In this document: positions 3 to 59,494 of the stretch, one piece after another
Layout: each line of letters opens with the position of its first letter
How positions within the stretch are numbered: the first letter of the stretch is position 1
DNA from: an uncultured virus (IMG/VR IMGVR_UViG_2061766007_000872)
Taxonomy: Duplodnaviria > Heunggongvirae > Uroviricota > Caudoviricetes
Virus record (IMG/VR): IMGVR_UViG_2061766007_000872
Strand: one strand, 5' to 3'
DNA length: 64,000 bases
The notes under the pieces: model-generated
The model's input: the letters and a program-made list of their open reading frames with translations, nothing else
What the model was told of the DNA's origin: nothing
The model's database searches: none
Position numbers and translations under genes: made by a program

Positions 3-299
3 GTTAGAAATATCAATGCATCAAATGTTAGTGATGCAGAAAAAGAATTCCTTAGATATGCTGCAGCAAGACATATTGTATTTACATATTCAAAGATTGC
101 AGATTACTATGCTCATGCAACTCCAGAGATGCAAAAACTCATGGAACAAAGTGCATTAGTTATCATTGATATGGATGATGCTATTGCCAATGGCTATGTC
201 AAGTTATCTAAGAATATTGAAAAGATTATGAAAGATACTGGTAGACCAGTCAAAGAAGAGTTTTATAATCAAACAACCGGTAAAAAAGGTGAACAATAA
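3..299 (+). CDS. 5'-truncated conserved phage protein of the kind found next to GREB1/TAGT-like glycosyltransferases
   Basis: Open frame 3 from the window edge (…KEFLRYAAARHIVFTYSKIADYYAHATPEMQKLMEQSALVIIDMDDAIANGYVKL…); TAA at 297-299 overlaps the next ATG. Not in the ORF track. Confidence 0.7.
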   Translation, partial: VRNINASNVSDAEKEFLRYAAARHIVFTYSKIADYYAHATPEMQKLMEQSALVIIDMDDAIANGYVKLSKNIEKIMKDTGRPVKEEFYNQTTGKKGEQ

Positions 300-1153
300 T
301 GGTAAGAGATAGTTTTGCTATATTTATCTTAACACATGGTAGACCAGATAAAGTCTTAACTTTAACTCTTCTTGAAAAGTGTAATTATACAGGTAAATGG
401 TATCTTGTTATTGATAATGAAGACAAGACAGCAGATAGATACTATGAACTTTATGGTAAAGAACATGTTGTCATGTTTGATAAGTTAAAGAAAGCACAAG
501 AATTTGATACCTGTGATATTTTATCAAGAGATAGAAGAGCAATTGTTTATGCGAGAAACGCAGCATTTGATATTGCAGAAAATCTCGGCTTAACTTATTT
601 CTTAGAACTTGATGATGACTACACAGAATTTAGAATGAGATATGACCTCAATGGTGTCTTCTCATCTTTATATGTCACACAATTAGACCCACTTATTGAA
701 GAAACACTTGACTTCTTAGATACAAGTGGTGCACTTACAGTAGCATGGGCTCAAACTGGTGACTTCATTGGTGGCATGGGCTCAAGAGTTTATAAAGAGA
801 GATTGACAAGAAAAGCCATGAACTCATTCTTCTGCAGAGTTGATAGAAGATTTGACTTTGTTGGTAGAATTAATGAAGATGTTAATACATATACTTGGAG
901 AGGTACAAGAGGTGAATTGTTTTTTACAATTGCAGATATGTCGTTGAATCAACAAGACTCACAACAAAATAGTGGTGGTATGACAGAGTTGTATTTAAAT
1001 GCAGGTACATATGTCAAGTCATTCTATTCAGTTATTGTTGCTCCTTCTTGTGTTAAGATTGCAGAAATGGGTTGTGGCCATAGAAGAATTCACCACTTAG
1101 TTGATTGGGAAACATGTACTCCAAAGATTATAAGTAGTAGATTTAAAAAATAA
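299..1153 (+). CDS. GREB1-like / TET-associated glycosyltransferase (TAGT), GT-A fold, copy 1
   Basis: IFILTHGRPD start, RN motif, LDDD (DxD), GRINEDVNTY, QQNSGGMT, HRRIHH. Confidence 0.75.
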   Translation: MVRDSFAIFILTHGRPDKVLTLTLLEKCNYTGKWYLVIDNEDKTADRYYELYGKEHVVMFDKLKKAQEFDTCDILSRDRRAIVYARNAAFDIAENLGLTYFLELDDDYTEFRMRYDLNGVFSSLYVTQLDPLIEETLDFLDTSGALTVAWAQTGDFIGGMGSRVYKERLTRKAMNSFFCRVDRRFDFVGRINEDVNTYTWRGTRGELFFTIADMSLNQQDSQQNSGGMTELYLNAGTYVKSFYSVIVAPSCVKIAEMGCGHRRIHHLVDWETCTPKIISSRFKK

Positions 1154-1154
1154 T

Positions 1155-2006
1155 ATGAGAAATGATTTTGCAGTATTCATTCTTTCTCATGGTAGACCAG
1201 ATAAGGTTGTTACATTAAAAACACTTAAAAGAATTGGCTATACTGGAAAGTATTATATTGTACTTGATGATGAAGATAAAACTTTACAAGAGTATAAAAA
1301 TACTTTTGGTGAAGACCATATTCTTTTATTTAATAAAGACAAAGTTGAACAATCATTTGATACCATGGATAATCTAAGCAACAAGAAAGTTGTTGTATAT
1401 GCCAGAAACGTTTGTTTTGATTTTGCAAGACAATTAGGTCTAAAATACTTTCTTGAATTAGATGATGATTATGTTAGATTAGAGTTAAGAACTGAAGAAT
1501 GTGGGAAATTGCTTACAACAGAACTGAGGAACGCTGATTCAATATTTGAATGTATGTTAGACTTTTTAGAAGATTCCAAAGCCCTATCAGTTGCTTTTGC
1601 ACAAGGTGGAGATTTGATTGGTGGTCTTGGAGGAACAATGTGGAAAGTTAAACTCAAAAGAAAAGCAATGAATTCCTTTTTCTGCAAGACGGATAGACCA
1701 TTCTCATTTATAGGAAGAATCAATGAGGATGTTAATACATATACAACTTTAGGTTCTAGAGGTAATTTATTCTTCACAATAGCAAATATAGATTTAATTC
1801 AAGCACCAACACAAGCACATGATGGTGGCATGAGTGATGTCTATCTTGACTCTGGAACTTATCTAAAATCATTTTATACAATTATGTCAATGCCATCATG
1901 TGTATCAATTGATATGATGGGAGAACAACATAGAAGAATACATCATAAAGTAGATTGGGAAACTTGTGTTCCTAAGATTATTAGTGGGAGATTTAAAAAT
2001 GGCTAG
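1155..2006 (+). CDS. GREB1-like / TAGT glycosyltransferase, copy 2 (tandem paralog)
   Basis: Colinear with copy 1 over its whole length; same LDDD, GRINEDVNTY and HRRIHH motifs. Confidence 0.75.
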   Translation: MRNDFAVFILSHGRPDKVVTLKTLKRIGYTGKYYIVLDDEDKTLQEYKNTFGEDHILLFNKDKVEQSFDTMDNLSNKKVVVYARNVCFDFARQLGLKYFLELDDDYVRLELRTEECGKLLTTELRNADSIFECMLDFLEDSKALSVAFAQGGDLIGGLGGTMWKVKLKRKAMNSFFCKTDRPFSFIGRINEDVNTYTTLGSRGNLFFTIANIDLIQAPTQAHDGGMSDVYLDSGTYLKSFYTIMSMPSCVSIDMMGEQHRRIHHKVDWETCVPKIISGRFKNG

Positions 2007-6795: not shown

Positions 6796-6872
6796 GGACC
6801 ATTAACTCAATTGGTTAGAGTGGACGGCCCATAACCGTTAAGTTCCGGGTTCAAGTCCTGGATGGTCCACCA
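6796..6872 (+). tRNA. tRNA with CAT anticodon, most likely tRNA-Ile2 (lysidine type), encoded CCA
   Basis: Acceptor GGACCAT/ATGGTCC, D stem ACTC/GAGT, anticodon stem GACGG/CCGTT with loop CCCATAA, T arm CCGGG-TTCAAGT-CCTGG, ACCA end. The GGACC acceptor and GACGG stem resemble Firmicute Ile2 as recalled. Confidence 0.9.
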
Positions 6873-14834: not shown

Positions 14835-16696
14835 TGACAATTAAATTTAAGAGTATACATATTCATCATTTCTTATCCTTTAATGATGCTTATATTGATT
14901 TAACAGATAGAGGTTATTGTTTAATTTCTGGTATTAACAAGAGACCAGAAGATGCTGCGAAGAGCAATGGTGCAGGTAAATCTACAATCTCAAATGCTAT
15001 TGCTTATGCACTTTTAGGTGAAACAATTAGCCAAATCAAAGATGTTGTGAATGACCACTTTAAAGATGGTTGCTATGTTGAACTAACTTTCAGTATTGAT
15101 AATAATGAATATGTCTTAACTAGAAGTAAGGGAGACAAAGACTTAGGTACAAATCTTAAAATCACAATCAATGGTGAAGATAAGAGTGGTAAAGGTATTA
15201 GAGAATCTCAAGCAATCTTGAATGATTTATTACCAGATATTAATAGGGAACTTGTCGGTAGTGTTATTTTATTAGGACAAGGTTTACCTGATAAGTTTAC
15301 ATCAAATACTCCTAGTGGAAGAAAAGAATGTTTAGAGAATTTAACTAAATCAAACTTCATGATTCTTGATTTAAAAGATAAGATTGATAATAGACAATCT
15401 ACTTTAAACTCACAACTCAGAGAAGTTGAAGATAAGTTAATTACAATAGATACACAGAAACGAGTCTATTCAGAGCAATTAAGCGACGAAAAGCAAAAAC
15501 TTGAAGAATTACTCAAAGAAACAAATTTGAATGAGATATTAGCAGAAAAGACAAAGATGAGAGATGAGTTGCAAGCACAGTATGATTCTAATGCCAAGCA
15601 ACTAGATACAATTGCACAAGAAAAAGAAAATCTTAATGGAAAGATTCTTGCTGAATCTAATCTTAAGAATGAGAGATTACAAAGTCTTTCTACTCAATAC
15701 AATGAATATAATGGTTCCTTATCTTCAGATAGAACAAAATTTGAAATGCAAATCAATCAGTTAGAAAGAGAAATCACTGACATGAAGAACATTAAAGATG
15801 TTTGTCCTACTTGTGGTAGACCATTTGAAGGTGTTGTCAAGCCAGATACATCTGCAAAAGAAGCAGAGTTATTACAAGTAAAAGAATCATTAAATCAAGT
15901 AAGAGAAGAGATTAGATTAAATGATGAAGACTATGCTTCTGCTAAAGATAAAGTAAATACAATGTATCAAGAAGCAACACAACAAGTTAATGCAAGACTC
16001 GGTGAATTAAGAGCAGATGAGATGAAGTATTCAAATGTTGAAGTTGCTCCACTACTTGAAATGGCAAAGAGGTTAGTAATTAAAGTTGAAGGTGACATTG
16101 CATCACATGATGAAAAAGTTACAACTACTCAAAGTAAAATAGATGATTATACTACTAAGTTAAGTACTCTTAACACACAAGAAGAAGAGAGTAGAGAATC
16201 TAAACTTAATTTAAGTAAGCACATTGAAGTTGTTAATAAGTTTAATACTTATGTTAAGAGAGACTTTAGAGGTATCTTATTAGGAAATAGTATTGACTAC
16301 ATCAATGCTAAAGCAAAAGAATATGCTTTAAAGATTTTCAATACAGATGATGTTGCATTTAAATTAGATGGAAATGATATTGACATCCTCTTCTGTGGTA
16401 GAGATTATAATAACTTGAGTGGTGGTGAAAAGCAAAGAGTTGACTTAATTACACAATTTGCTATTAGAGACTTACTAGCAAAGAGATTTAAGTTCTCAAG
16501 TAATATTATCTTCTTAGATGAAATTACAGACAACTTAGATGCTGATAGTTGTGCTAGAGTTATGAACTTCATTACACAAGAGTTAAAAGATATTGAAAGT
16601 ACATTTATTATTTCGCATCATACAGACTTAGAGATTCCTGTTGATAGCGAGATTGTAATTGTGAAGAGCAGAGAAGGCATAAGTGAGGTGATGTAA
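14834..16696 (+). CDS. sbcC: SbcC/Rad50 (gp46-like) ATPase
   Basis: SNGAGKST, coiled coil with CPTC zinc hook, LSGGE, FLDE, ISH. Confidence 0.9.
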   Translation: MTIKFKSIHIHHFLSFNDAYIDLTDRGYCLISGINKRPEDAAKSNGAGKSTISNAIAYALLGETISQIKDVVNDHFKDGCYVELTFSIDNNEYVLTRSKGDKDLGTNLKITINGEDKSGKGIRESQAILNDLLPDINRELVGSVILLGQGLPDKFTSNTPSGRKECLENLTKSNFMILDLKDKIDNRQSTLNSQLREVEDKLITIDTQKRVYSEQLSDEKQKLEELLKETNLNEILAEKTKMRDELQAQYDSNAKQLDTIAQEKENLNGKILAESNLKNERLQSLSTQYNEYNGSLSSDRTKFEMQINQLEREITDMKNIKDVCPTCGRPFEGVVKPDTSAKEAELLQVKESLNQVREEIRLNDEDYASAKDKVNTMYQEATQQVNARLGELRADEMKYSNVEVAPLLEMAKRLVIKVEGDIASHDEKVTTTQSKIDDYTTKLSTLNTQEEESRESKLNLSKHIEVVNKFNTYVKRDFRGILLGNSIDYINAKAKEYALKIFNTDDVAFKLDGNDIDILFCGRDYNNLSGGEKQRVDLITQFAIRDLLAKRFKFSSNIIFLDEITDNLDADSCARVMNFITQELKDIESTFIISHHTDLEIPVDSEIVIVKSREGISEVM

Positions 16697-20244: not shown

Positions 20245-20613
20245 ATGGCAAAAAGACATGTAATTAGATATTTTTTAGAAGTAGAACATAATTATGTTGA
20301 AACAATGGAAGTTCTTAAAGAACTCCAAGAATTAGCAAATCAAGGTAAAGTTGAAGAATCTACTTATTTAAATGTAGAAAAAGATTTAGAAGTAATTAAG
20401 ACAAATTATGAAAGAATTGCTTATATCATCTTCTTACTTAATAAACCAAATAGAAGTAAGAAAGAGGCATATGAAGAGAAAATAAATAAATCTTGGTATG
20501 ATGGTCTAAAGTTTGCCTCTAAAGAAGCAATCATGGATGAATCAAGAGATGCTTTAGCACATTTTAAAGAGGTGGTCAAGGGAGTTAAGGATGGACAAAG
20601 AGAAACTAAATAA
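20245..20613 (+). CDS. hypothetical protein
   Basis: GAAAGGAAG SD downstream of AATTGTATAAT. Confidence 0.6.
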   Translation: MAKRHVIRYFLEVEHNYVETMEVLKELQELANQGKVEESTYLNVEKDLEVIKTNYERIAYIIFLLNKPNRSKKEAYEEKINKSWYDGLKFASKEAIMDESRDALAHFKEVVKGVKDGQRETK

Positions 20614-25140: not shown

Positions 25141-25728
25141 ATGAAAATGATTGCAAGAAAAATTAAACCAGGTATCTTAGAGATTATTGATGTTAAAAGT
25201 CAAGATGAAATTGAATCTTATACACTTTTAGAGATTAGTGATAAAGATGCATATCTTCTTGCCACATCTGCTAATACACTTAGTAAAGATGGAAACACAG
25301 TGACTATTTGCTATACAAATGGTGATGAAGTTGATAAGATGTTTAAAGCAATTGCAAATAAGCATCAAGAAGAAAATTCAGACAACTTCATTGATGTGTC
25401 TAAGAAGTATACACTTGACAAAGATGTTAAGATTCCAGGTACAAGTTTACTCTTAAGAGATGCAAAGAATCACATCATTAAAGTTGCTTATAGAAAAACA
25501 ACAAACTCAAAAGAAGGTAATATCAATAGATTATTTGTTACAAATGATATTAGGGATAAGTTCTTCAATGATGTAAGAGTCAGTAAAAGACATTTAGAAA
25601 CAAATAAGTGGGAACTTGATACAAGAAGTAAAGCATATGCATATTGGTCAAGTTATATGAATAGAGAATATTTAAGAATAATTGACAACATAAAGGCAGA
25701 AAAGGATGAACAACATGAAAGTAAGTAA
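25141..25728 (+). CDS. hypothetical protein
   Basis: GAGG SD after AATTGTATAAT. Confidence 0.6.
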   Translation: MKMIARKIKPGILEIIDVKSQDEIESYTLLEISDKDAYLLATSANTLSKDGNTVTICYTNGDEVDKMFKAIANKHQEENSDNFIDVSKKYTLDKDVKIPGTSLLLRDAKNHIIKVAYRKTTNSKEGNINRLFVTNDIRDKFFNDVRVSKRHLETNKWELDTRSKAYAYWSSYMNREYLRIIDNIKAEKDEQHESK

Positions 25729-25882: not shown

Positions 25883-25904
25883 CCAAGAAAGGAAGTGATG
25901 TTGT

Positions 25905-26156
25905 TTGGCTAGAGTATCATTAAATGCTCATGACTTAGAAGAAATTCGTAGGTCTGACAATCCAGCAGGTAACATCAACATGTTCCTTGATTCTATGCTT
26001 AGAAGATTCAAGAAACAAGTTGAAAGTGAAGACATTCTTTATGAATGTAAGAAAAGAGAATTCTTCTTGAAGAAATCTTTAAGACGTAAAGAGAAATCTA
26101 AACGTGCAAAGATTAGAGAAATCAAGAGAAAAAAGAAATCTGCTAGAAGATACTAA
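25905..26156 (+). CDS. rpsU: ribosomal protein bS21 homolog
   Basis: LDSMLRRFKKQV…ILYECKKREFF…RRKEKSKRA; TTG start with GAAAGGAAG SD. Confidence 0.88.
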   Translation: MARVSLNAHDLEEIRRSDNPAGNINMFLDSMLRRFKKQVESEDILYECKKREFFLKKSLRRKEKSKRAKIREIKRKKKSARRY

Positions 26157-26233
26157 ACAAAAAAGTGTTCTCACTATGCAGGGCTGAAAGGAAAAGTACC
26201 CTAACAAATAGTGAGAACACTTTAAATTTAGCA
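26157..26233 (-). ncRNA. candidate small hairpin RNA (may also act as the rpsU terminator)
   Basis: Perfect 16-bp inverted repeat at 26162-26177 / 26208-26223; TGCTAAATTTAA on the minus strand at 26222-26233; minus-strand U tract after the stem. Confidence 0.5.
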
Positions 26234-26438
26234 ATAAAGATGTGGTCACATTAATAAGACTGGTATGCTTACATCTTCAGTTGAGAACTTATTCTACGGT
26301 TTTTGTAGAGAACTCTATAACAAAGATTACAATAGAGATACAAAATCTTATCCATACAAGACAGACATTATCTCATTAAGAGACATGTTCTTAAATAGAT
26401 AATTGTATAATATATAGAGATACAGAAAGGAGATTATT

Positions 26439-26675
26439 ATGGTTCCTACATTAAGAGAGTATATTGCCAATGCACTAAACATGTTGCAACAACGCAGACA
26501 AAGACTTCAAGAAATGTCTGATAGAACAACAAATCCTCTTGATAGATTAGCATACATTGATATGATTAATGAAATTAATATGTGCTTAAGTTTATTTGAA
26601 GATTGGCAACGAGTTGCAGACGCTAATGATGAAGCATTAAAACAAAAACAAAATGCACATAAAGAAGACAAGTAG
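26439..26675 (+). CDS. hypothetical protein
   Basis: AAAGGAG SD after AATTGTATAAT at 26401. Confidence 0.6.
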   Translation: MVPTLREYIANALNMLQQRRQRLQEMSDRTTNPLDRLAYIDMINEINMCLSLFEDWQRVADANDEALKQKQNAHKEDK

Positions 26676-26704
26676 TTGACAATTTCACTTTAAAAGTGTA
26701 TAAT
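26676..26704 (+). promoter_or_regulatory. sigmaA-type promoter
   Basis: TTGACA-17-TATAAT. Confidence 0.85.
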
Positions 26705-26734
26705 GATTCCAGATATACTAGTGAGGTAGTCAAT

Positions 26735-27430
26735 ATGGAATTTGTCTTCAATGATGGTGGTAGAAGTAAATACTTCAAAGCAAGTAGTGTTGGTGATTGT
26801 GTTACAAGAGCAATTGTCAATGCTACAGGTTTAGACTACAAAGAAGTCTATGATAAACTTAATGCTGAAGCAAAGAGAGAACATAAATCAAAGAGAAGAA
26901 GAGTGAGAAGTTCCTCTAGAAATGGTGTTTTCACAGCAACAGCAAAGAGATACATTGAAAGAGATTTAGGATGGATTTGGGTTCCTTGCATGGGTATCGG
27001 TACAGGTTGCCAAGTGCATGTCAAAGCAGGTGAACTTCCTAGCAAAGGTAGTTACATTTTAAATCTTAGTAAACACTTCTCTTGTTGGAAAGATAACAAA
27101 CTTTATGATACATATGATTGTTCAAAACATGGTACAAGATGTGTCTATGGTTATTGGCGTGAACCAACAGAAGAAGAGAGACAAATGCATGAAGAAACTA
27201 AAAAGCAAGTTCAAGAGTACAAAGATTTTGTAGCAAGTGAAAAAGAAGAACTTGCTAGAAAGAAAGCAGAAGTTAAGAAATACAATGATAAGATTACTAA
27301 GAAGTATGCTAAGAGAATTAATAAACTCAGAGCACAACTTAGAAAATTAGAAAGAGAAAGAGATTCTCAATTATTAGAAATGCCTAAGCAAGAAAAAGAT
27401 TCTTGGGCTAAAAGAGGTTTCACTTTATAG
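26735..27430 (+). CDS. conserved phage protein with GDCVTRAI motif (possible papain-like fold) and coiled-coil tail
   Basis: GDCVTRAI…KHFSCW…YDTYD pattern; GAGG SD. Confidence 0.55.
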   Translation: MEFVFNDGGRSKYFKASSVGDCVTRAIVNATGLDYKEVYDKLNAEAKREHKSKRRRVRSSSRNGVFTATAKRYIERDLGWIWVPCMGIGTGCQVHVKAGELPSKGSYILNLSKHFSCWKDNKLYDTYDCSKHGTRCVYGYWREPTEEERQMHEETKKQVQEYKDFVASEKEELARKKAEVKKYNDKITKKYAKRINKLRAQLRKLERERDSQLLEMPKQEKDSWAKRGFTL

Positions 27431-30444: not shown

Positions 30445-33400
30445 ATGAGTAAAGAATTAGAAAAATTAGCCCTTGATGGCATAGCATTTCAAACAGTGAA
30501 ATCCGTATTAGACCACCACAACATTAAATCAACACTAGAGTTAATGGATGCTTTAAGAGTTCTTGATATCATTGCTGACCACTTAAGTATCTGCAAACCA
30601 ATGGATGCTGCAGAAGGAAGAGAAGTTGACTTTGAGGTCTNNNNNNNNNNNNNNNNNNNTGGGAAAACAACAAGGTGAGTTTGAGATTGTCAAAGAGTGG
30701 TTTGAAAATAGAAAAAAATAATAGTGTATAATATATCATGAAGAAAAGTTTTTATAATACAGATAAACGAAAATATAATTATATTTATAAATACTTGAGT
30801 AAAGATGCTCTGTTAACACTTATGGATGACTATCTTGCAGATATTAATTGTAAAGATGAGGACTTCAAGATTTATTTAGATATGACTCAAAATCTTAAAA
30901 CAAAGAAAGCAATTCTTAATAAGTATCTCAATTTAGTTTGGGATATTGTTATGGAAGAAAATGATAATATGTATTAGAAGAGGTGGTTAAAATGATTACA
31001 GTAATTAAACATGGTAATAAAACTTTTAAAGCAGTGTGTCCAATTTGTGGTTGTGAATTTACTTATCAAGATGAAGATTTAAATGAAGATATTTTTCACA
31101 ATCATAATGTAATTTGTCCAGATTGTGGAAGACATATCCCACATGATGAGCAAAAGAATAGAGCACTGAATAAAGATATTCTTTGGGATTATGCCGAGGA
31201 ACAATCAGATAAAATGGATATTCCTGTTGTTACATTAGAGACAAAGAATACATCACAAAGTAAATAAGATGAGTATTGCGGATAAAGAAGTGTTAAATCC
31301 AGAAAAGAAAAAAGAATATAATGAGATGATGAAGCATTTCAGAAAACTTCTTTTTGATGATGTAAAGAATGCTTGTCCATCTGATTGGGAATTTGGTCTC
31401 AATTTGTTTATTGACTTCTTAAAGTGGATGCAGGCGTATTATAAATTAGATTATAATGTTTGGGCACTTGAAAGAAAAGATGAAGACCCTGAATCTTATA
31501 AGGATGTTCCTACAAGAGAGCAGTCAATAACAGAAACTCTTATGTACTACAATAGATGGCAATCTTGTGAAGGAGATTACTATAAGGTTGCATATAATGA
31601 TGATGAAGTGAAGCATTATCAAGAATTAGGATTTCACTTATCAACTAGTGATAGTACAATGAATGAAGCAGTGAATAAAGTAAACGGTAGAGTTTTAACA
31701 TTATACGAAGATGAGAAAAAGAATCTTGATGAATGTATTAAGGCTAAAGAAGACTACAAACACAAATTCTTTGAATGTTTAGAAAAATACATAGAAGAGT
31801 GGTGGGATTAGTATCATAAAGAATCATAGTTAAATATGAGAAAGGAAATGAGTTATCAATGAAATTTTTGGGAAGAGTTGTTGAACCAAAACAATTATTA
31901 CAAGAAATTGAACATCTAATTATAAGTAGTACACAGACAAAGAGTACAACTACTGATGGAAAAGTTATCTACTCAGATTTTGGTTATGTTTCAGACTTCT
32001 TTAATCAAGTGTTGAATAGTATTGGTGCAGAGAGTGTTAACAATGACTAGTGACGTAAAAGAAATCATTGATTATTCTGATATCACAGCAGAAGATAAAG
32101 AAAAAATTCTCAAGATTCTTTTAAGATATGTTTATGAAGTGTCTGAATATCCTGGTAATGAGTCATCTCCTTATTGGATTATCTTTCATGGCTTTGAAGG
32201 TGAGAATGGAGACCTGTCCAAAGAAGAATATGAATTGTTAATGAAATATAAAGGTAAACTTTGGAATAATTAAGTAGAGAATTATGAGTAGAAGTTATAG
32301 AAAGACACCAGTTCTTAAAGAGAGTGGCAAGAAAAAGAAAAGAACATTTGCAAATAGAATAGTCAGAAGAAAATTAAATAATCCAGACTACGAACTTGCT
32401 GATGGTAGAGCATACAAGAAAGTATTTGAATCTTGGGATATTACAGACTATGTTTTTAGACTAACAAAAGAAGAAGCAATAGAAGATTGGTATGCTTCAG
32501 TTGAAAAGTATCCTTGGTTTAAAGAAATGTATCCAACTTTAGACTCTTATATTAAATGGTGGAAAGTAACTTATAAAAGTAAATAGAGGAACAATTATGC
32601 TTACATTAAAAGAAGTACCTGGTAACATTACTCTTGATGATTACTGCATACATTTTCAAGAATTTGATGCAGTAGATTTTGAAACTATATCAAATCTACA
32701 AAGACAATTAGTAATGAGATTAACAGAGAAAGAGAAGAAAGACTTCTTCAATTATCTTTACAATGTTAATCATAATTATGCACATAAGACCATTAGACGT
32801 CCAAAGGTGTGGATGAAGATATGCAATTGTTTGCCACTTATTTCATTGTTTACATTTGCAGATAATCCATTGATTACAAAATTAGAAAAGAGATACTCAA
32901 AAGGTGATACATCTGTTTTAGATATTCCATTTGGTAAAGAAATAATTTATGATGAAATTAATTCAAAAAATAATTGGAATCTTGGAGACTATAACTTTTA
33001 TTATCATTATTAGAAATAGGAGAATACAATAATGTTTCATATAGAAATAGATAGAGTACTCTTAGAAATAGGAGCAGGCAAAAGTGAACTACATAATCTA
33101 GAGTTATATGGTCCAGATAAATATGATATAGTAATAATCTCCAATTCTAATAATGAAAAAGATGCTAACACAGTAAAAGAAGAATTATCAAATAGAGATA
33201 GTTCATATCATCCATATATATTCAAAGTATTTACTACAGAGAATATGCCTAGAGATAAAGTAAGAGTAACATTAGTGGAAAAGAATCCACATGTATCAAT
33301 TTATATACCATATATCAAAGTTACAAATNNNNNNNNNNNNNNNNNNAGTAAGAATGAGAGATATAATAATAGGTGCCAAAAACTAATGCTAAATTTAACA

Positions 33401-56669: not shown

Positions 56670-56912
56670 ATGCCTTCTAACAATCCAAAAACAACTTATT
56701 TAAACTTACCTTTATATAGTCTTTTAGATGCAGACACAACAGCATTTGCAGACTATTGGAAGTCAATAAACCTTGAAGCAGATGGTAGCCAAGTTGACTA
56801 CTCTGCTTTTCAAATACTTGATAGTGCCTACCATGATTTAGATACAAGAATCAATAATCTACCAGGTCAAATAGCAGACTTATTTGACGCAGCAATGGAG
56901 CATGAATATTAA
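56670..56912 (+). CDS. small tail-associated protein
   Basis: TTYLNLPLY…FQILD pattern typical of fibre N-termini. Confidence 0.45.
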   Translation: MPSNNPKTTYLNLPLYSLLDADTTAFADYWKSINLEADGSQVDYSAFQILDSAYHDLDTRINNLPGQIADLFDAAMEHEY

Positions 56913-59494
56913 TGGGCAATATTTCTAGTACAATACAAAATCTAGTGAATATTTTTAGAGACACTGCTAGTGCTATTAGAGTAAAAGATGGCACAGGTGC
57001 CTCTATTTCGCCATTTGATTTTGCTTCTAGAATATTAGCCATTCCTTCTGGTTCTGGTAGTGGTGATGAGTATGCAAAAGCAATTATAGAAAGAAGTGTT
57101 TCTACTATAGAAATGCAAGATGTTGCTAGTATAGGCCCCTATGCTTTTTGTAATTGTGTTGATTTAACTTCAGCAAGTTTTCCTGGAGTTAGTTTAATTT
57201 CATCTTTTGCATTTTCAAATTGTTCAAATCTTACATCAGTATATGCACCAAATTGTAAGTTGATTGGTCAGGGTGCTTTTGCACATTGTAGCAATATTAC
57301 AAATGTTGAATTTCAAAATTGTGAAGTTGTTGGAACGTCAGCATACTTTCATTGCTATTCAGTATCAACTATTAGTTTGCCAAACTGTAGAATTTTGAGC
57401 AATGATGCATTTAATAACTGTAGGGGAATTTCAGAAATATATTTACCTAACTGCTTATCAATAGGAAATACAGCGTTCAATTATTGTAGTGATTTAACAT
57501 CAGTAAATCTTCCTAAATGCGAATATATATCAGCGTATGCTTTCGCTTATTGTTCAAGTTTAGTTTCAGTGAATATTCCCAACTGTTCAACATTATCTAC
57601 TGGAGCATTTGAATATTGCCCATCGCTAACAAACATAGATTTACCAAATGTTAGGGGTTCTATTTCATATACATTTTTTGCATGTACTTCATTACAAAGT
57701 ATTACTATTCCAAATGTATTATATCTACAATCAGCATTTTATAGTTGTATTAAACTTCCATCAATTAGTTTACCGAATGCTACAACTATAGGAGCAAGTA
57801 CTTTTTACAGTTGTTATTCTTTAAGTACAGTAGATATTCCAAATTGTAAGTTAATTAGTGATAATGCTTTTAGATATTGTTCAAGTTTAGAGCAGGTTAG
57901 TTTTCCTATACTCATGAGTATTTCAACTAATGCATTTGCAAATTGTTCCGTATTGTCAAAAGTTTTTTGTACATGTGGAGGCTATATTGGACAATATGCA
58001 TTCAATAGTTGTTCAAATTTAACAGAGTTTTATTTGCTTAATTGCAGTACTACACTAGCAAATTTACAAAATGCGAATGCATTTTATAGCACTCCAATCT
58101 CAACTTCAACACAACTAGGATATTTTGGCTCAATTTTTGTAATACCAAGTTTAGTTAATACATATAAAACAGCAAATAACTGGTCATTATATAGTGATAG
58201 AATCACTTCAGCACCACAAAGTATTATTAATGAAGGTATTTGGCCATATGAGTTCTTATCAGATGCAACTATTACTGCTACTCCACAAGGAAAAGAAGAT
58301 GCACAAGTTGTTGGTAGGAATGCATTCAATAATTGTGTTGCTTTATCAACAATTTCATTAAGTAGATGTGTAACCATTGATGACTATGCCTTTTATAGAT
58401 GTTCAGCACTTGAAACAATAAATATTCCTAATTGTACATACATAGGAAGTTGTGCATTTAGTGGATGTTCAAATTTAACAAGCATTGATTTTCCTAATTG
58501 CAAACATCTTTGTAGTAATGCATTTTATGATTGCAAAAATTTAATCTCAGTTAATCTACCAAATGTTATATCAGCAGATATGAGTGTGTTTTGCAATGCA
58601 TCAAAATTAAAATCAGTAGATTTACCTAGTTGTGTCACATTGGGCAATTATGCTTTCTACAACTGTTATACATTAAGCACTGCATCACTTCCTAATTGTG
58701 AAGAAGTTGGACAACTTGCTTTTAGATTTTGTTCAAATTTGAGTGAAATTCAACTCCCAAAGTGTAATTTATTAAGTGGAAGTTCATTTGAATATTGTTC
58801 AAATTTAACATATGTGAGTATTCCTAATGTTTTATCTATCTACAATAATGCATTTGCATATTGCAATAAATTAGAATCTGTTTATGCTCCAAATGTTGTA
58901 ATGATACAAGTAAATGCATTTAGAGGTTGTTATTCACTTACAACTGCTAATTTTCCTTTATGCACAAGTGTGGGTGCATATGCTCTGTATCAGTGCGTAA
59001 ATTTATCTTCAGTAAATTTACCAAAATGCTTATCTGTAGGAAGTAATGCATTCTGTGGATGTTCAAATTTGCAATCAGTTAATCTACAAAATACACGTAC
59101 AATAGGAAGTTCAGCATTTACATTTTGTTCAAATCTTACAACTATTGATATTAGCAATTGTGAGAGTATTGAACGCTCTGCATTTTATGGATGTTCTTCT
59201 CTATCAACAATATTACTGATGAAGTGTAGAGAAATTAATGTAGAAGCATTTAATGAATGTCATAATCTTGTAAGTGTATACAATTTAAATCCTAGTGTCA
59301 CGTCACTATATGAAAATGTATTTAGTAGAAATGCTTTCTATAACACTCCTATTGCAAATATGTCATATCTTGGATATTATGGAAGTATATATGTTCCTAT
59401 GTCATTAGTAAATACATATAAATCAGCATCATCGTGGTCAACTTATTCAGATAGATTTGTAGGCTTAACAGATGAGGAAATAGCAAATCTCTAA
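56912..59494 (+). CDS. BspA/TpLRR-type leucine-rich repeat protein, two LRR blocks
   Basis: Many ~22-aa repeats of type IGxxAFxxCxxLxxVxLPNC; two C-caps (SIxVxxSLVNTYKxAxxWSxYSDR). Confidence 0.9.
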   Translation: MGNISSTIQNLVNIFRDTASAIRVKDGTGASISPFDFASRILAIPSGSGSGDEYAKAIIERSVSTIEMQDVASIGPYAFCNCVDLTSASFPGVSLISSFAFSNCSNLTSVYAPNCKLIGQGAFAHCSNITNVEFQNCEVVGTSAYFHCYSVSTISLPNCRILSNDAFNNCRGISEIYLPNCLSIGNTAFNYCSDLTSVNLPKCEYISAYAFAYCSSLVSVNIPNCSTLSTGAFEYCPSLTNIDLPNVRGSISYTFFACTSLQSITIPNVLYLQSAFYSCIKLPSISLPNATTIGASTFYSCYSLSTVDIPNCKLISDNAFRYCSSLEQVSFPILMSISTNAFANCSVLSKVFCTCGGYIGQYAFNSCSNLTEFYLLNCSTTLANLQNANAFYSTPISTSTQLGYFGSIFVIPSLVNTYKTANNWSLYSDRITSAPQSIINEGIWPYEFLSDATITATPQGKEDAQVVGRNAFNNCVALSTISLSRCVTIDDYAFYRCSALETINIPNCTYIGSCAFSGCSNLTSIDFPNCKHLCSNAFYDCKNLISVNLPNVISADMSVFCNASKLKSVDLPSCVTLGNYAFYNCYTLSTASLPNCEEVGQLAFRFCSNLSEIQLPKCNLLSGSSFEYCSNLTYVSIPNVLSIYNNAFAYCNKLESVYAPNVVMIQVNAFRGCYSLTTANFPLCTSVGAYALYQCVNLSSVNLPKCLSVGSNAFCGCSNLQSVNLQNTRTIGSSAFTFCSNLTTIDISNCESIERSAFYGCSSLSTILLMKCREINVEAFNECHNLVSVYNLNPSVTSLYENVFSRNAFYNTPIANMSYLGYYGSIYVPMSLVNTYKSASSWSTYSDRFVGLTDEEIANL

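Follow-up and report, generated by a model that had tools for sequence, protein, structure and literature searches.

The lambda OOP RNA is a short cis-antisense RNA that is convergent with cII. In Firmicutes, the small RNAs RsaE/RoxS and the hairpins of RNAIII mask Shine–Dalgarno (SD) sites with C- or U-rich loops. The 3' tail of 16S ribosomal RNA (rRNA) carries the anti-SD sequence, the CCUCC core of which pairs with GGAGG. Few small RNAs of lytic phages are known to us, and almost none from large uncultured phages of the gut or rumen. Here, we describe a hairpin element located directly 3' of rpsU, the gene for ribosomal protein bS21, in 64,000 nucleotides (nt) of DNA from an uncultured virus of the class Caudoviricetes (IMG/VR record IMGVR_UViG_2061766007_000872), a stretch that is called the window throughout. 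An earlier interpretation of this DNA, the sequence-only reading, proposed that a late promoter on the minus strand drives a hairpin RNA with an anti-SD-like loop, and that this RNA and bS21 act as a pair that reprograms translation initiation late in infection. The element is very probably a real RNA gene and, as judged by comparison of related loci, is a member of a previously undescribed family of phage small-RNA genes. It belongs to a large AT-rich phage from the bovine gut or rumen.

A perfect inverted repeat follows the rpsU stop codon: the two arms, 26162-26177 and 26208-26223, are 16 nt each, 100% complementary, and separated by a spacer of 30 nt. The minus strand of 26145-26245 folds at -35.8 kcal/mol, compared with -13.1 ± 2.5 kcal/mol for shuffled sequences (z -8.9; 0 of 200 shuffles as good), and the plus strand of the same segment at -28.0 kcal/mol (z -5.3). 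An exact copy of the phage promoter motif TGCTAAATTTAA is positioned immediately before the stem on the minus strand (26222-26233). The predicted small RNA of ~65 nt would span 26157-26221 on this strand; its start is put at ~26221-26218, given where the motif lies and given the conserved (A/G)TGA behind it in the related genome G003, and its end is put in or just past the U tract from the hairpin and U6. In the sense of this RNA, the inverted repeat and folding define the 5' arm of the outer stem (26208-26223) and its 3' arm (26162-26177), and an inner stem AGGG/CCCU (26199-26202 with 26180-26183), supported by covariation of the closing helix, closes the conserved 13-nt loop ACUUUUCCUUUCA (26185-26197). 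The stem is followed on the minus strand by U6 (26164-26159), an A tract before the stem when read on the plus strand, and then by GUUU. A stable hairpin with a U tract directly behind it, the pattern of an intrinsic terminator, is thus found on the minus strand, and the tail after the stem on the plus strand is UUUAAAUUU. The hairpin is not listed by a simple terminator scanner because that program accepts only loops of 3-8 nt. The inverted repeat, the minus-strand TGCTAAATTTAA, the U tract and the GAAAGGAA matches described by the sequence-only reading were all found where it had placed them.

The upstream edge of the unit can be seen in related strains. In three runs (X3, X5, X7) the strain contigs end a few bases ahead of the motif, at 26237-26246, and a contig of a fourth run (X4) skips 26241-26398, joining 26240 to 26399. 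These breaks and this junction indicate that the unit ends just upstream of the motif, without a conserved -35 region. The 45-codon open reading frame (ORF) at 26265-26402 is probably not a conserved gene, since the X4 contig skips 26241-26398.

Relatives of the locus were obtained in two ways. A scan of metagenome contigs with the bS21 protein yielded L050 (72% identity), L051 (62%), L052 (69%, over part), L053 (55%, cut at the gene), L054 and L055 (50%; the same sequence, counted once as L054/55), and L056 (48%). A pattern scan of IMG/VR for the motif, a gap and the loop core yielded six stretches, three of which form hairpins of the same build and belong to the phage records G001 (217.6 kb), G002 (161.4 kb) and G003 (148.2 kb); two of these records are complete and G002 is 91% complete. 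The remaining three lack a hairpin and were set aside: L069, and L070 and L073, which are identical in sequence. Eight distinct loci were therefore compared: the window, L050, L051, L054/55, L056, G001, G002, and G003. L050, L051, L054/55, and L056 were found via bS21, and the loops of the first five loci were not chosen by sequence.

L050 and L051 are syntenic with the window, sharing the topoisomerase gene, the gene for a 195-aa protein and rpsU, followed in L050 by the gene for a 244-aa protein. Both have a hairpin 3' of rpsU with a stem unrelated in sequence to that of the window yet still pairing; the minus-strand loop is CUUAUCCUUUCA in these two and CUUUUCCUUUCA in the window, U6 follows the hairpin, and TGCTAAAATTAA or TGCTAAATTAAT precedes it. 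In L054/55 the motif and the loop are on the rpsU strand, i.e., the unit is flipped, and a canonical terminator, distinct from the loop hairpin, comes after it. In L056 the loop hairpin is 2.9 kb downstream of rpsU, behind the variant motif GGCTAAATATAG (two mismatches). An ungapped alignment of the eight distinct sequences gives the loop consensus (A/C/U)CUU(A/U)UCCUUUCA, with 11 of 13 positions invariant, on stems that are unrelated in sequence across the eight loci and still pair. The promoter motif lies upstream on the same strand as the loop in the eight units, exact in seven, also where the unit is flipped relative to rpsU, and a terminator lies downstream on the loop strand in all seven units with a known 3' end. 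Two architectures are seen: a single hairpin ending in a U tract (the window, L050, L051, and L071, with 6-7 U behind the stem in the RNA sense), or a loop hairpin plus a separate canonical terminator (L054/55, L072, and L074); L054/55 and L072 have an extra 5' hairpin. The 7-bp closing helix pairs in 78.6% of cells compared with 49.4 ± 5.4% in shuffles (0 of 500 as high), all seven of its pairs are changed on both sides, and its covariation score is 0.827 compared with at most 0.342 when the partners are slid by 1-3 columns; these structure statistics rest on only eight sequences, and the numbers are indicative.

The comparison shows that the promoter, the covarying stem, the invariant loop, and the terminator form a conserved block, present in a single copy per genome, that moves and flips together. 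The features of a small RNA are found in it: its own promoter and terminator delimiting a short non-coding unit, and an invariant unpaired seed on a covarying scaffold. According to the sequence-only reading, relatives that kept the stem without the CCUUUC loop or the promoter would point to a simple terminator; the opposite is seen in the eight distinct loci, where the CCUUUC loop and the motif are kept and the stem sequence differs, and the proposal of an independent minus-strand unit beyond an rpsU terminator is borne out. A bidirectional stop after rpsU, with a motif and a loop that have no function of their own, is highly improbable. A strong hairpin right after the rpsU stop codon, flanked by A6 and by U-rich sequence, is what such a stop would look like, but terminator loops are not conserved and here 11 positions are invariant across unrelated stems. 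Moreover, the window has no minus-strand genes to terminate, the plus strand of L050 and L051 has no U run after the stem, a separate canonical terminator follows the hairpin in L054/55, L072, and L074, and the unit has its own promoter copy.

A covariance model, R1, was built from the conserved core of the eight sequences. It gives one strong match in the window (36 bits; next 22.9 bits) and one per genome in G001-G003 (31-38 bits; next at most 18). The second match in the window, at 14859-14893 (plus strand, 22.9 bits), lies inside an SbcC-like ORF with the loop CUUAUCCUUUA and was judged a chance match, as was a 23-bit match in L038 with a different loop. On 64 other loci, including distant bS21 phage loci, R1 finds nothing above 23 bits. 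Bacterial genomes were approached with the motif-plus-loop pattern, and none of the 80 loci analysed (of 89 matching stretches) exceeds 23 bits (best 22.9); by eye, these matches are mostly reverse complements of ordinary ribosome-binding sites. A relaxed loop pattern was run on IMG/VR, and 80 of 101 matching stretches were analysed: only two already known members exceed 30 bits, and 7 of 79 examined passed a crude hairpin filter, namely the two known members, one sequence resembling a transfer RNA (tRNA) T-arm, and four others of uncertain standing (L114, L130, L139, and L157). The exact-stem pattern of the window has no match in IMG/VR. Two UvsX relatives, G004 (70% complete) and G005 (84%), have no strong RNA match and no bS21; both flanking genes are also missing, and this negative is uninformative because the whole region is missing from those records. 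In Rfam 15 the gathering threshold is reached in the window only by a tRNA at 6796-6869, a permissive search of 26050-26450 gives only chance miRNA-hairpin matches (scores of 23.5 and 14.1 bits, where the thresholds are 88 and 72), and the related loci give tRNAs only. A search of the literature brought up no description of this small RNA.

A single copy per genome, directly behind a promoter and ahead of a terminator and with a conserved hairpin loop, is also how a cis-acting signal in nascent RNA might appear, such as a nut-like antiterminator site that lets transcription from this promoter pass the terminator. The read-through product in the window would be a long RNA antisense to both rpsU and the topoisomerase gene. 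We consider this extremely improbable: no candidate binding protein or boxA-like partner was identified, the gene downstream in G002 has a host-type promoter-like sequence of its own, and the orientation relative to downstream genes is not conserved.

The choice of the working strand relies on several observations. The strand with CCUUUC is the strand of the neighbouring genes in G001, G002, G003, L054/55, and L056, the same five loci in which the unit is co-directional; the convergent units are those of the window, L050, and L051 alone. In 5 of 8 loci it is the CCUUUC strand that forms the more stable hairpin, and G-U pairs are confined to the RNA-sense strand in the window, L071, L072, and L074. 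In our reading, the RNA gene is the CCUUUC strand everywhere. Two findings speak against this. In L050 and L051 the rpsU-sense strand folds better (-25.1 vs. -19.1 and -22.4 vs. -18.2 kcal/mol) and bears the G-U pairs, and the strain variant A26208G (X3, X4, and X5) still pairs on the plus strand, as G-U, but leaves a C-A mismatch in the minus-strand stem. A26208G is the one stem substitution among the strain differences listed; the strain contigs that cover the hairpin have up to 1 (X3), 3 (X4), 2 (X5), and 5 (X7) differences beyond those listed.

Both findings would favour a plus-strand element, a hairpin in the 3' untranslated region (UTR) or intergenic part of the rpsU messenger RNA (mRNA) whose loop carries an SD-like or GGA motif (UGAAAGGAAAAG) and which could be a ribosome or anti-SD decoy, a CsrA-type site, or an mRNA stabiliser. 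Transcription of the plus strand, which holds all genes of the window, is certain whenever read-through of rpsU occurs. We nevertheless regard a working plus strand as very unlikely: it is the CCUUUC strand that carries the neighbouring genes in five loci, that has the motif upstream and the terminator downstream, and that has the sense-only G-U pairs, and only 7 nt of the plus-strand loop (GAAAGGA) match the 16S tail whereas its invariant UAAG does not. For the convergent lineage of the window, our reading of a CCUUUC-strand gene is that the complement has been selected as well, as the 3' hairpin of the rpsU message. Since the unit is convergent to rpsU in the window, L050, and L051, its complement there is a hairpin of the rpsU 3' UTR, and the rpsU message and the small RNA could meet via complementary loops.

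The promoter motif itself is present in four exact copies in the window, the minus-strand copy at the small RNA and plus-strand copies at 33387, 52029, and 59503. It resembles an extended -10 element (TGn followed by TAAATT) without a conserved -35 region, and probably belongs to this type. The degenerate form TGCTAAAWTWA occurs 26 times on the forward and once on the reverse strand of G002, and 23 times and not at all, respectively, in G003, with 0 and 0 copies of a reversed-pattern control in both; the bias for G002 and G003 together is 49 to 1. G001 has 5 forward and 3 reverse copies (control 1 and 2). The window has 6 forward and 1 reverse, the lone minus-strand copy being that at the small RNA. 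Twenty G003 copies align as TGCTAAATTAA(A/G)TGA, with AT-rich, unconserved sequence upstream and no conserved -35 region in any of them. Seventeen of the 20 are 13-78 nt before an SD-like site and start codon, most of them at 13-70 nt, with none found or +107 for the other three, and several G003 copies stand just after terminator-like sequences. By these sequence criteria the motif is a genuine strand-specific phage promoter signal.

Promoters of the TGCTAAATT type were treated as a phage class and set against host-type consensus promoters. The plus-strand copies of the degenerate motif in the window are at 33387, 46134, 52029, 56071, 59503, and 59610, four of the six in or just before a block of large fibre-like genes. 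Host-type promoters near the consensus (at least 11 of 12 positions) number nine, all on the plus strand between 5647 and 44975 and none in the 46-64 kb block; a perfect TTGACA-17-TATAAT at 26676-26704 (plus strand) stands in front of the gene for the 244-aa protein. As for the "late" character given to the promoter by the sequence-only reading, the positions in the window fit a later class, but this may not hold in general, as the G003 copies are spread across the entire genome. A late small-RNA promoter is plausible for the window phage. A copy of the motif, TGCTAAATTAAT, is also found directly upstream of rpsU (3001) in L056, at 2956-2967, and the same locus has a tRNA gene at 2308-2379.

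The best reading overall, in our estimate slightly short of an even chance, is a small RNA of ~65 nt that forms a unit of its own and works through its loop, possibly by pairing with a few ribosome-binding sites of the GAAAGGA type. The phage-specific promoter TGCTAAATTTAA on the minus strand would start the RNA, and the RNA would be one long hairpin that, together with U6, also terminates transcription. This hairpin would display the invariant, unpaired, pyrimidine-rich loop of 13 nt (ACUUWUCCUUUCA) as its working part. An antisense relation to rpsU, which a cis-antisense RNA would show through overlap with its target in all members, is missing in 5 of 8 loci. With the loop sequence conserved all the same, this points to a role in trans, presumably exerted via the loop. 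Most likely, the loop would pair with a small set of purine-rich sequences resembling GAAAGGA(A/U)AAG at ribosome-binding sites and block initiation there. The best candidate targets in the window would be the starts at 20245 and 31859 and that of rpsU. That the RNA works by pairing of the loop with such sites is, taken by itself, a tentative proposal to which we give somewhat less than an even chance.

The candidate targets rest on a short complementarity. The sequence GAAAGGAA in the extended SD site of rpsU (25887-25894, plus strand) is complementary to the segment UUCCUUUC of the loop, and it is also found before the starts at 20245 and 31859. The predicted loop duplexes are -15.6 kcal/mol for 20245, -12.1 for 31859, and -11.2 for rpsU, compared with a background of -5.1 ± 2.6 kcal/mol; the predicted ribosome-binding sites of the window are mostly of the AGGAGA or GAGGUA type. 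Mean duplex energies of the loop are -7.86 kcal/mol for early sites (n = 100) and -6.61 for late sites (n = 13), a comparison of means only.

Several results weigh against pairing as the function of the loop. Over the 113 predicted ribosome-binding sites of the window, its mean energy is -6.35 kcal/mol compared with -5.92 ± 0.56 for permutations, and 70 of 300 permutations pair as well. The 12-nt complement of the loop is not enriched in the window (27 matches, 29 expected), in G001-G003, or in five bacterial genomes picked arbitrarily among those with pattern matches, which are not known hosts. The match between the loop and the SD site of rpsU, noted by the sequence-only reading, is not a conserved feature: GAAAGGA is missing in L051 and G001, whose sites are of the canonical GAGGUGAU type, and is cut to GAAAGG in L056. 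Nor do homologous targets show conservation. Finally, the invariant CUUW and the final A of the loop are unaccounted for by SD pairing, and for this reason a protein-binding role is kept open.

The likeness of the loop to the 16S 3' tail, also put forward by that reading, holds in part: the loop shares UCCUUUC but reads (A/U)UCCUUUC and has no CCUCC core. On the same 113 sites, a 12-nt motif of the 16S tail has a mean of -8.07 kcal/mol. Global SD masking is unsupported because the loop does no better than its permutations and falls well below the 16S tail; the RNA appears not to be a global anti-SD mimic. A lone perfect 12-nt site is found in G002 (C1:139907-139918; L083 1513-1524), at the ribosome-binding site of a 17-codon ORF beside a tRNA cluster. 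It sits in a hairpin loop (CGCCAT...ATGGCG), and its perfect match may be due to chance. Just upstream of this site, L083 1200-1290 resembles the 3' half of a tRNA-like molecule ending in CCA.

An RNA that binds a protein, or acts as a decoy for one, would make different use of the loop: the invariant single strand would hold a protein that the RNA titrates or delivers. Candidates are bS21 of the phage or the host, another factor at the 16S 3' tail, a phage protein, and a host nuclease or toxin. The 11 invariant loop positions, including CUUW and the final A, exceed what SD pairing needs, and no conserved RNA target was found in the window, G001-G003, or the five bacterial genomes. Regarding bS21, the RNA is within 3 kb of its gene in 5 of 6 distinct loci (bS21 at least 48% identical, with downstream sequence), and there is a precedent in bS21 binding to an SD/anti-SD-like duplex of the OLE RNA, a non-ribosomal RNA (PMC12054373). 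Against bS21 stand G002 and G003, which have no phage bS21, and G001, in which a long distance separates the two genes; inherited gene order accounts for some of the adjacency; and the OLE site is a duplex with CCUCCU, whereas the loop here is unpaired and without CCUCC. Overall, we judge a protein-binding role unlikely.

The six distinct loci just mentioned (window, L050, L051, L052, L054/55, and L056) were chosen via bS21. The RNA is at most 150 nt from rpsU in four of them, at 2.9 kb in one, and absent from L052. Among the three genomes found through the RNA itself, bS21 is present in only one, G001, a genome of 217.6 kb with the RNA at 1.3 kb and rpsU at 155 kb; no S21 match accompanies the RNA in G002 (91% complete) or G003 (100%), which counts against the proposed partnership, and distant bS21 phage loci have no RNA by the covariance model. 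In G002, the RNA lies between homologues of the genes for the 195-aa (25141-25728) and 244-aa (26696-27430) proteins, as in the window, and the interval between the two homologues is 9 kb, with 16 tRNA genes (L316 2303-5571) in place of rpsU. Judged by gene order, the small RNA belongs to a variable island of translation-related cargo and is not an obligate partner of bS21, because G002 and G003 lack bS21, the genes are far apart in G001, and distant bS21 loci lack the RNA. An obligatory pairing with bS21 is abandoned on the same grounds. A role connected with translation is nevertheless suggested by the association with bS21 and tRNA genes, although this association is not obligatory.

The same part of G002 holds an ORF-poor, G+C-richer stretch of ~1.4 kb (L316 7317-8765; G002:C1, ~144.6-146.1 kb). 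A copy of the promoter motif directly precedes it, and its far end is a terminator hairpin a short way upstream of the small RNA. It has no Rfam match at E ≤ 0.01 and may be a large structured non-coding RNA. Near its end, the minus strand has a perfect ribosome-binding site and the ATG of a hydrophobic ORF of ~30 codons.

Late expression of phage bS21 has been reported in Bacteroidetes phages (PMC9723584). The pair of bS21 and an anti-SD mimic proposed by the sequence-only reading contains what is very probably a real small-RNA unit, and the pair as such survives only as a minority reading. The RNA could be a ribosome-directed decoy whose loop copies part of the 16S 3' tail and captures a factor that holds this tail, with bS21 as the obvious candidate. 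We consider this quite unlikely. If it is true, the phage would strip or exchange bS21 of the host ribosome, supplying its own bS21 where rpsU is carried; the use of start sites would change in infection, and phages would have a new route to reprogram translation initiation, by RNA plus protein or by RNA alone.

The DNA around the unit is AT-rich and phage-like, with a G+C content of 31% and essentially all long ORFs on the plus strand. The rpsU gene (25905-26156, plus strand) has a TTG start, is convergent with the small RNA, and is identified by Pfam Ribosomal_S21 PF01165 (E 8.2e-9; 35.5 bits, cut-off 27) and PHROG 21469 (E 9e-7). The window also carries two glucosyltransferase-like genes, a UvsX-like recombinase, clamp-loader subunits, SbcCD-like nucleases, and a peptide deformylase-like gene, and it encodes a type IA topoisomerase. 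The part at 46-64 kb encodes very large proteins, including a fibre-like Gp80 domain and a BspA-type leucine-rich-repeat protein. The latter, of 860 aa with six repeats (56912-59494, plus strand; E 2e-118), lies among the large fibre-like genes and is likely a host-recognition protein. At 299-2006 (plus strand), two tandem paralogous genes each match a glucosyl-HMC glucosyltransferase PHROG (E ~1e-68 each), which hints that the DNA of the phage may be modified. Relationships to described phages are distant: the window has no DNA match in the cultured phage collection, and its topoisomerase gene is at most 37% identical to those of cultured phages. The 195-aa protein has no relatives in IMG/VR, and the two loci found there with the 244-aa protein are not syntenic with the window and were left aside.

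The element described here is a compact RNA gene with a defined promoter class and an invariant 13-nt loop, present once per genome and set among bS21 and tRNA genes. Through it, the ways in which such phages adjust the translation of their hosts become accessible in concrete terms, and the analysis also yields a promoter consensus for an uncultured phage group. If the loop addresses the ribosome or bS21, the RNA would join an emerging theme of bS21 acting on RNAs outside the ribosome.

Compared with known systems, the arrangement in the window, L050, and L051 is like that of OOP: a short phage RNA with its own promoter runs towards a protein gene in convergent orientation and stops at a terminator hairpin by the 3' end of that gene. 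Unlike OOP, the RNA here overlaps only the 3' UTR hairpin of rpsU and not coding sequence. RsaE/RoxS and RNAIII share with it a stem-loop with an unpaired pyrimidine-rich loop complementary to ribosome-binding sites with GGA, a promoter of its own and an intrinsic terminator; the RNA differs in its loop sequence, which has no CCC or UCCC, in being phage-encoded, in having no Rfam match, and in its targeting, which is only predicted. It does not match Rfam, which holds the c4 family. The c4 antisense RNA of P1/P7 is likewise a phage RNA with a loop complementary to a ribosome-binding region, as described in a 2025 review of phage small RNAs (PMC12197685). It differs in being processed from a longer transcript and in having a defined target, ant, where no conserved target was found here. 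The passages of the review covered by the analysis mention no anti-SD-like RNA (PMC12197685). The loop and the 16S 3' tail have a run of 7 nt in common, UCCUUUC, and differ where the loop has (A/U)UCC and the tail its CCUCC core. P6 of the OLE RNA is an SD/anti-SD-like duplex with CCUCCU in an RNA of 600 nt, in contrast to an unpaired loop of 13 nt without CCUCC here (PMC12054373); the likeness is that in both cases a non-ribosomal RNA is tied to the anti-SD theme and to bS21.

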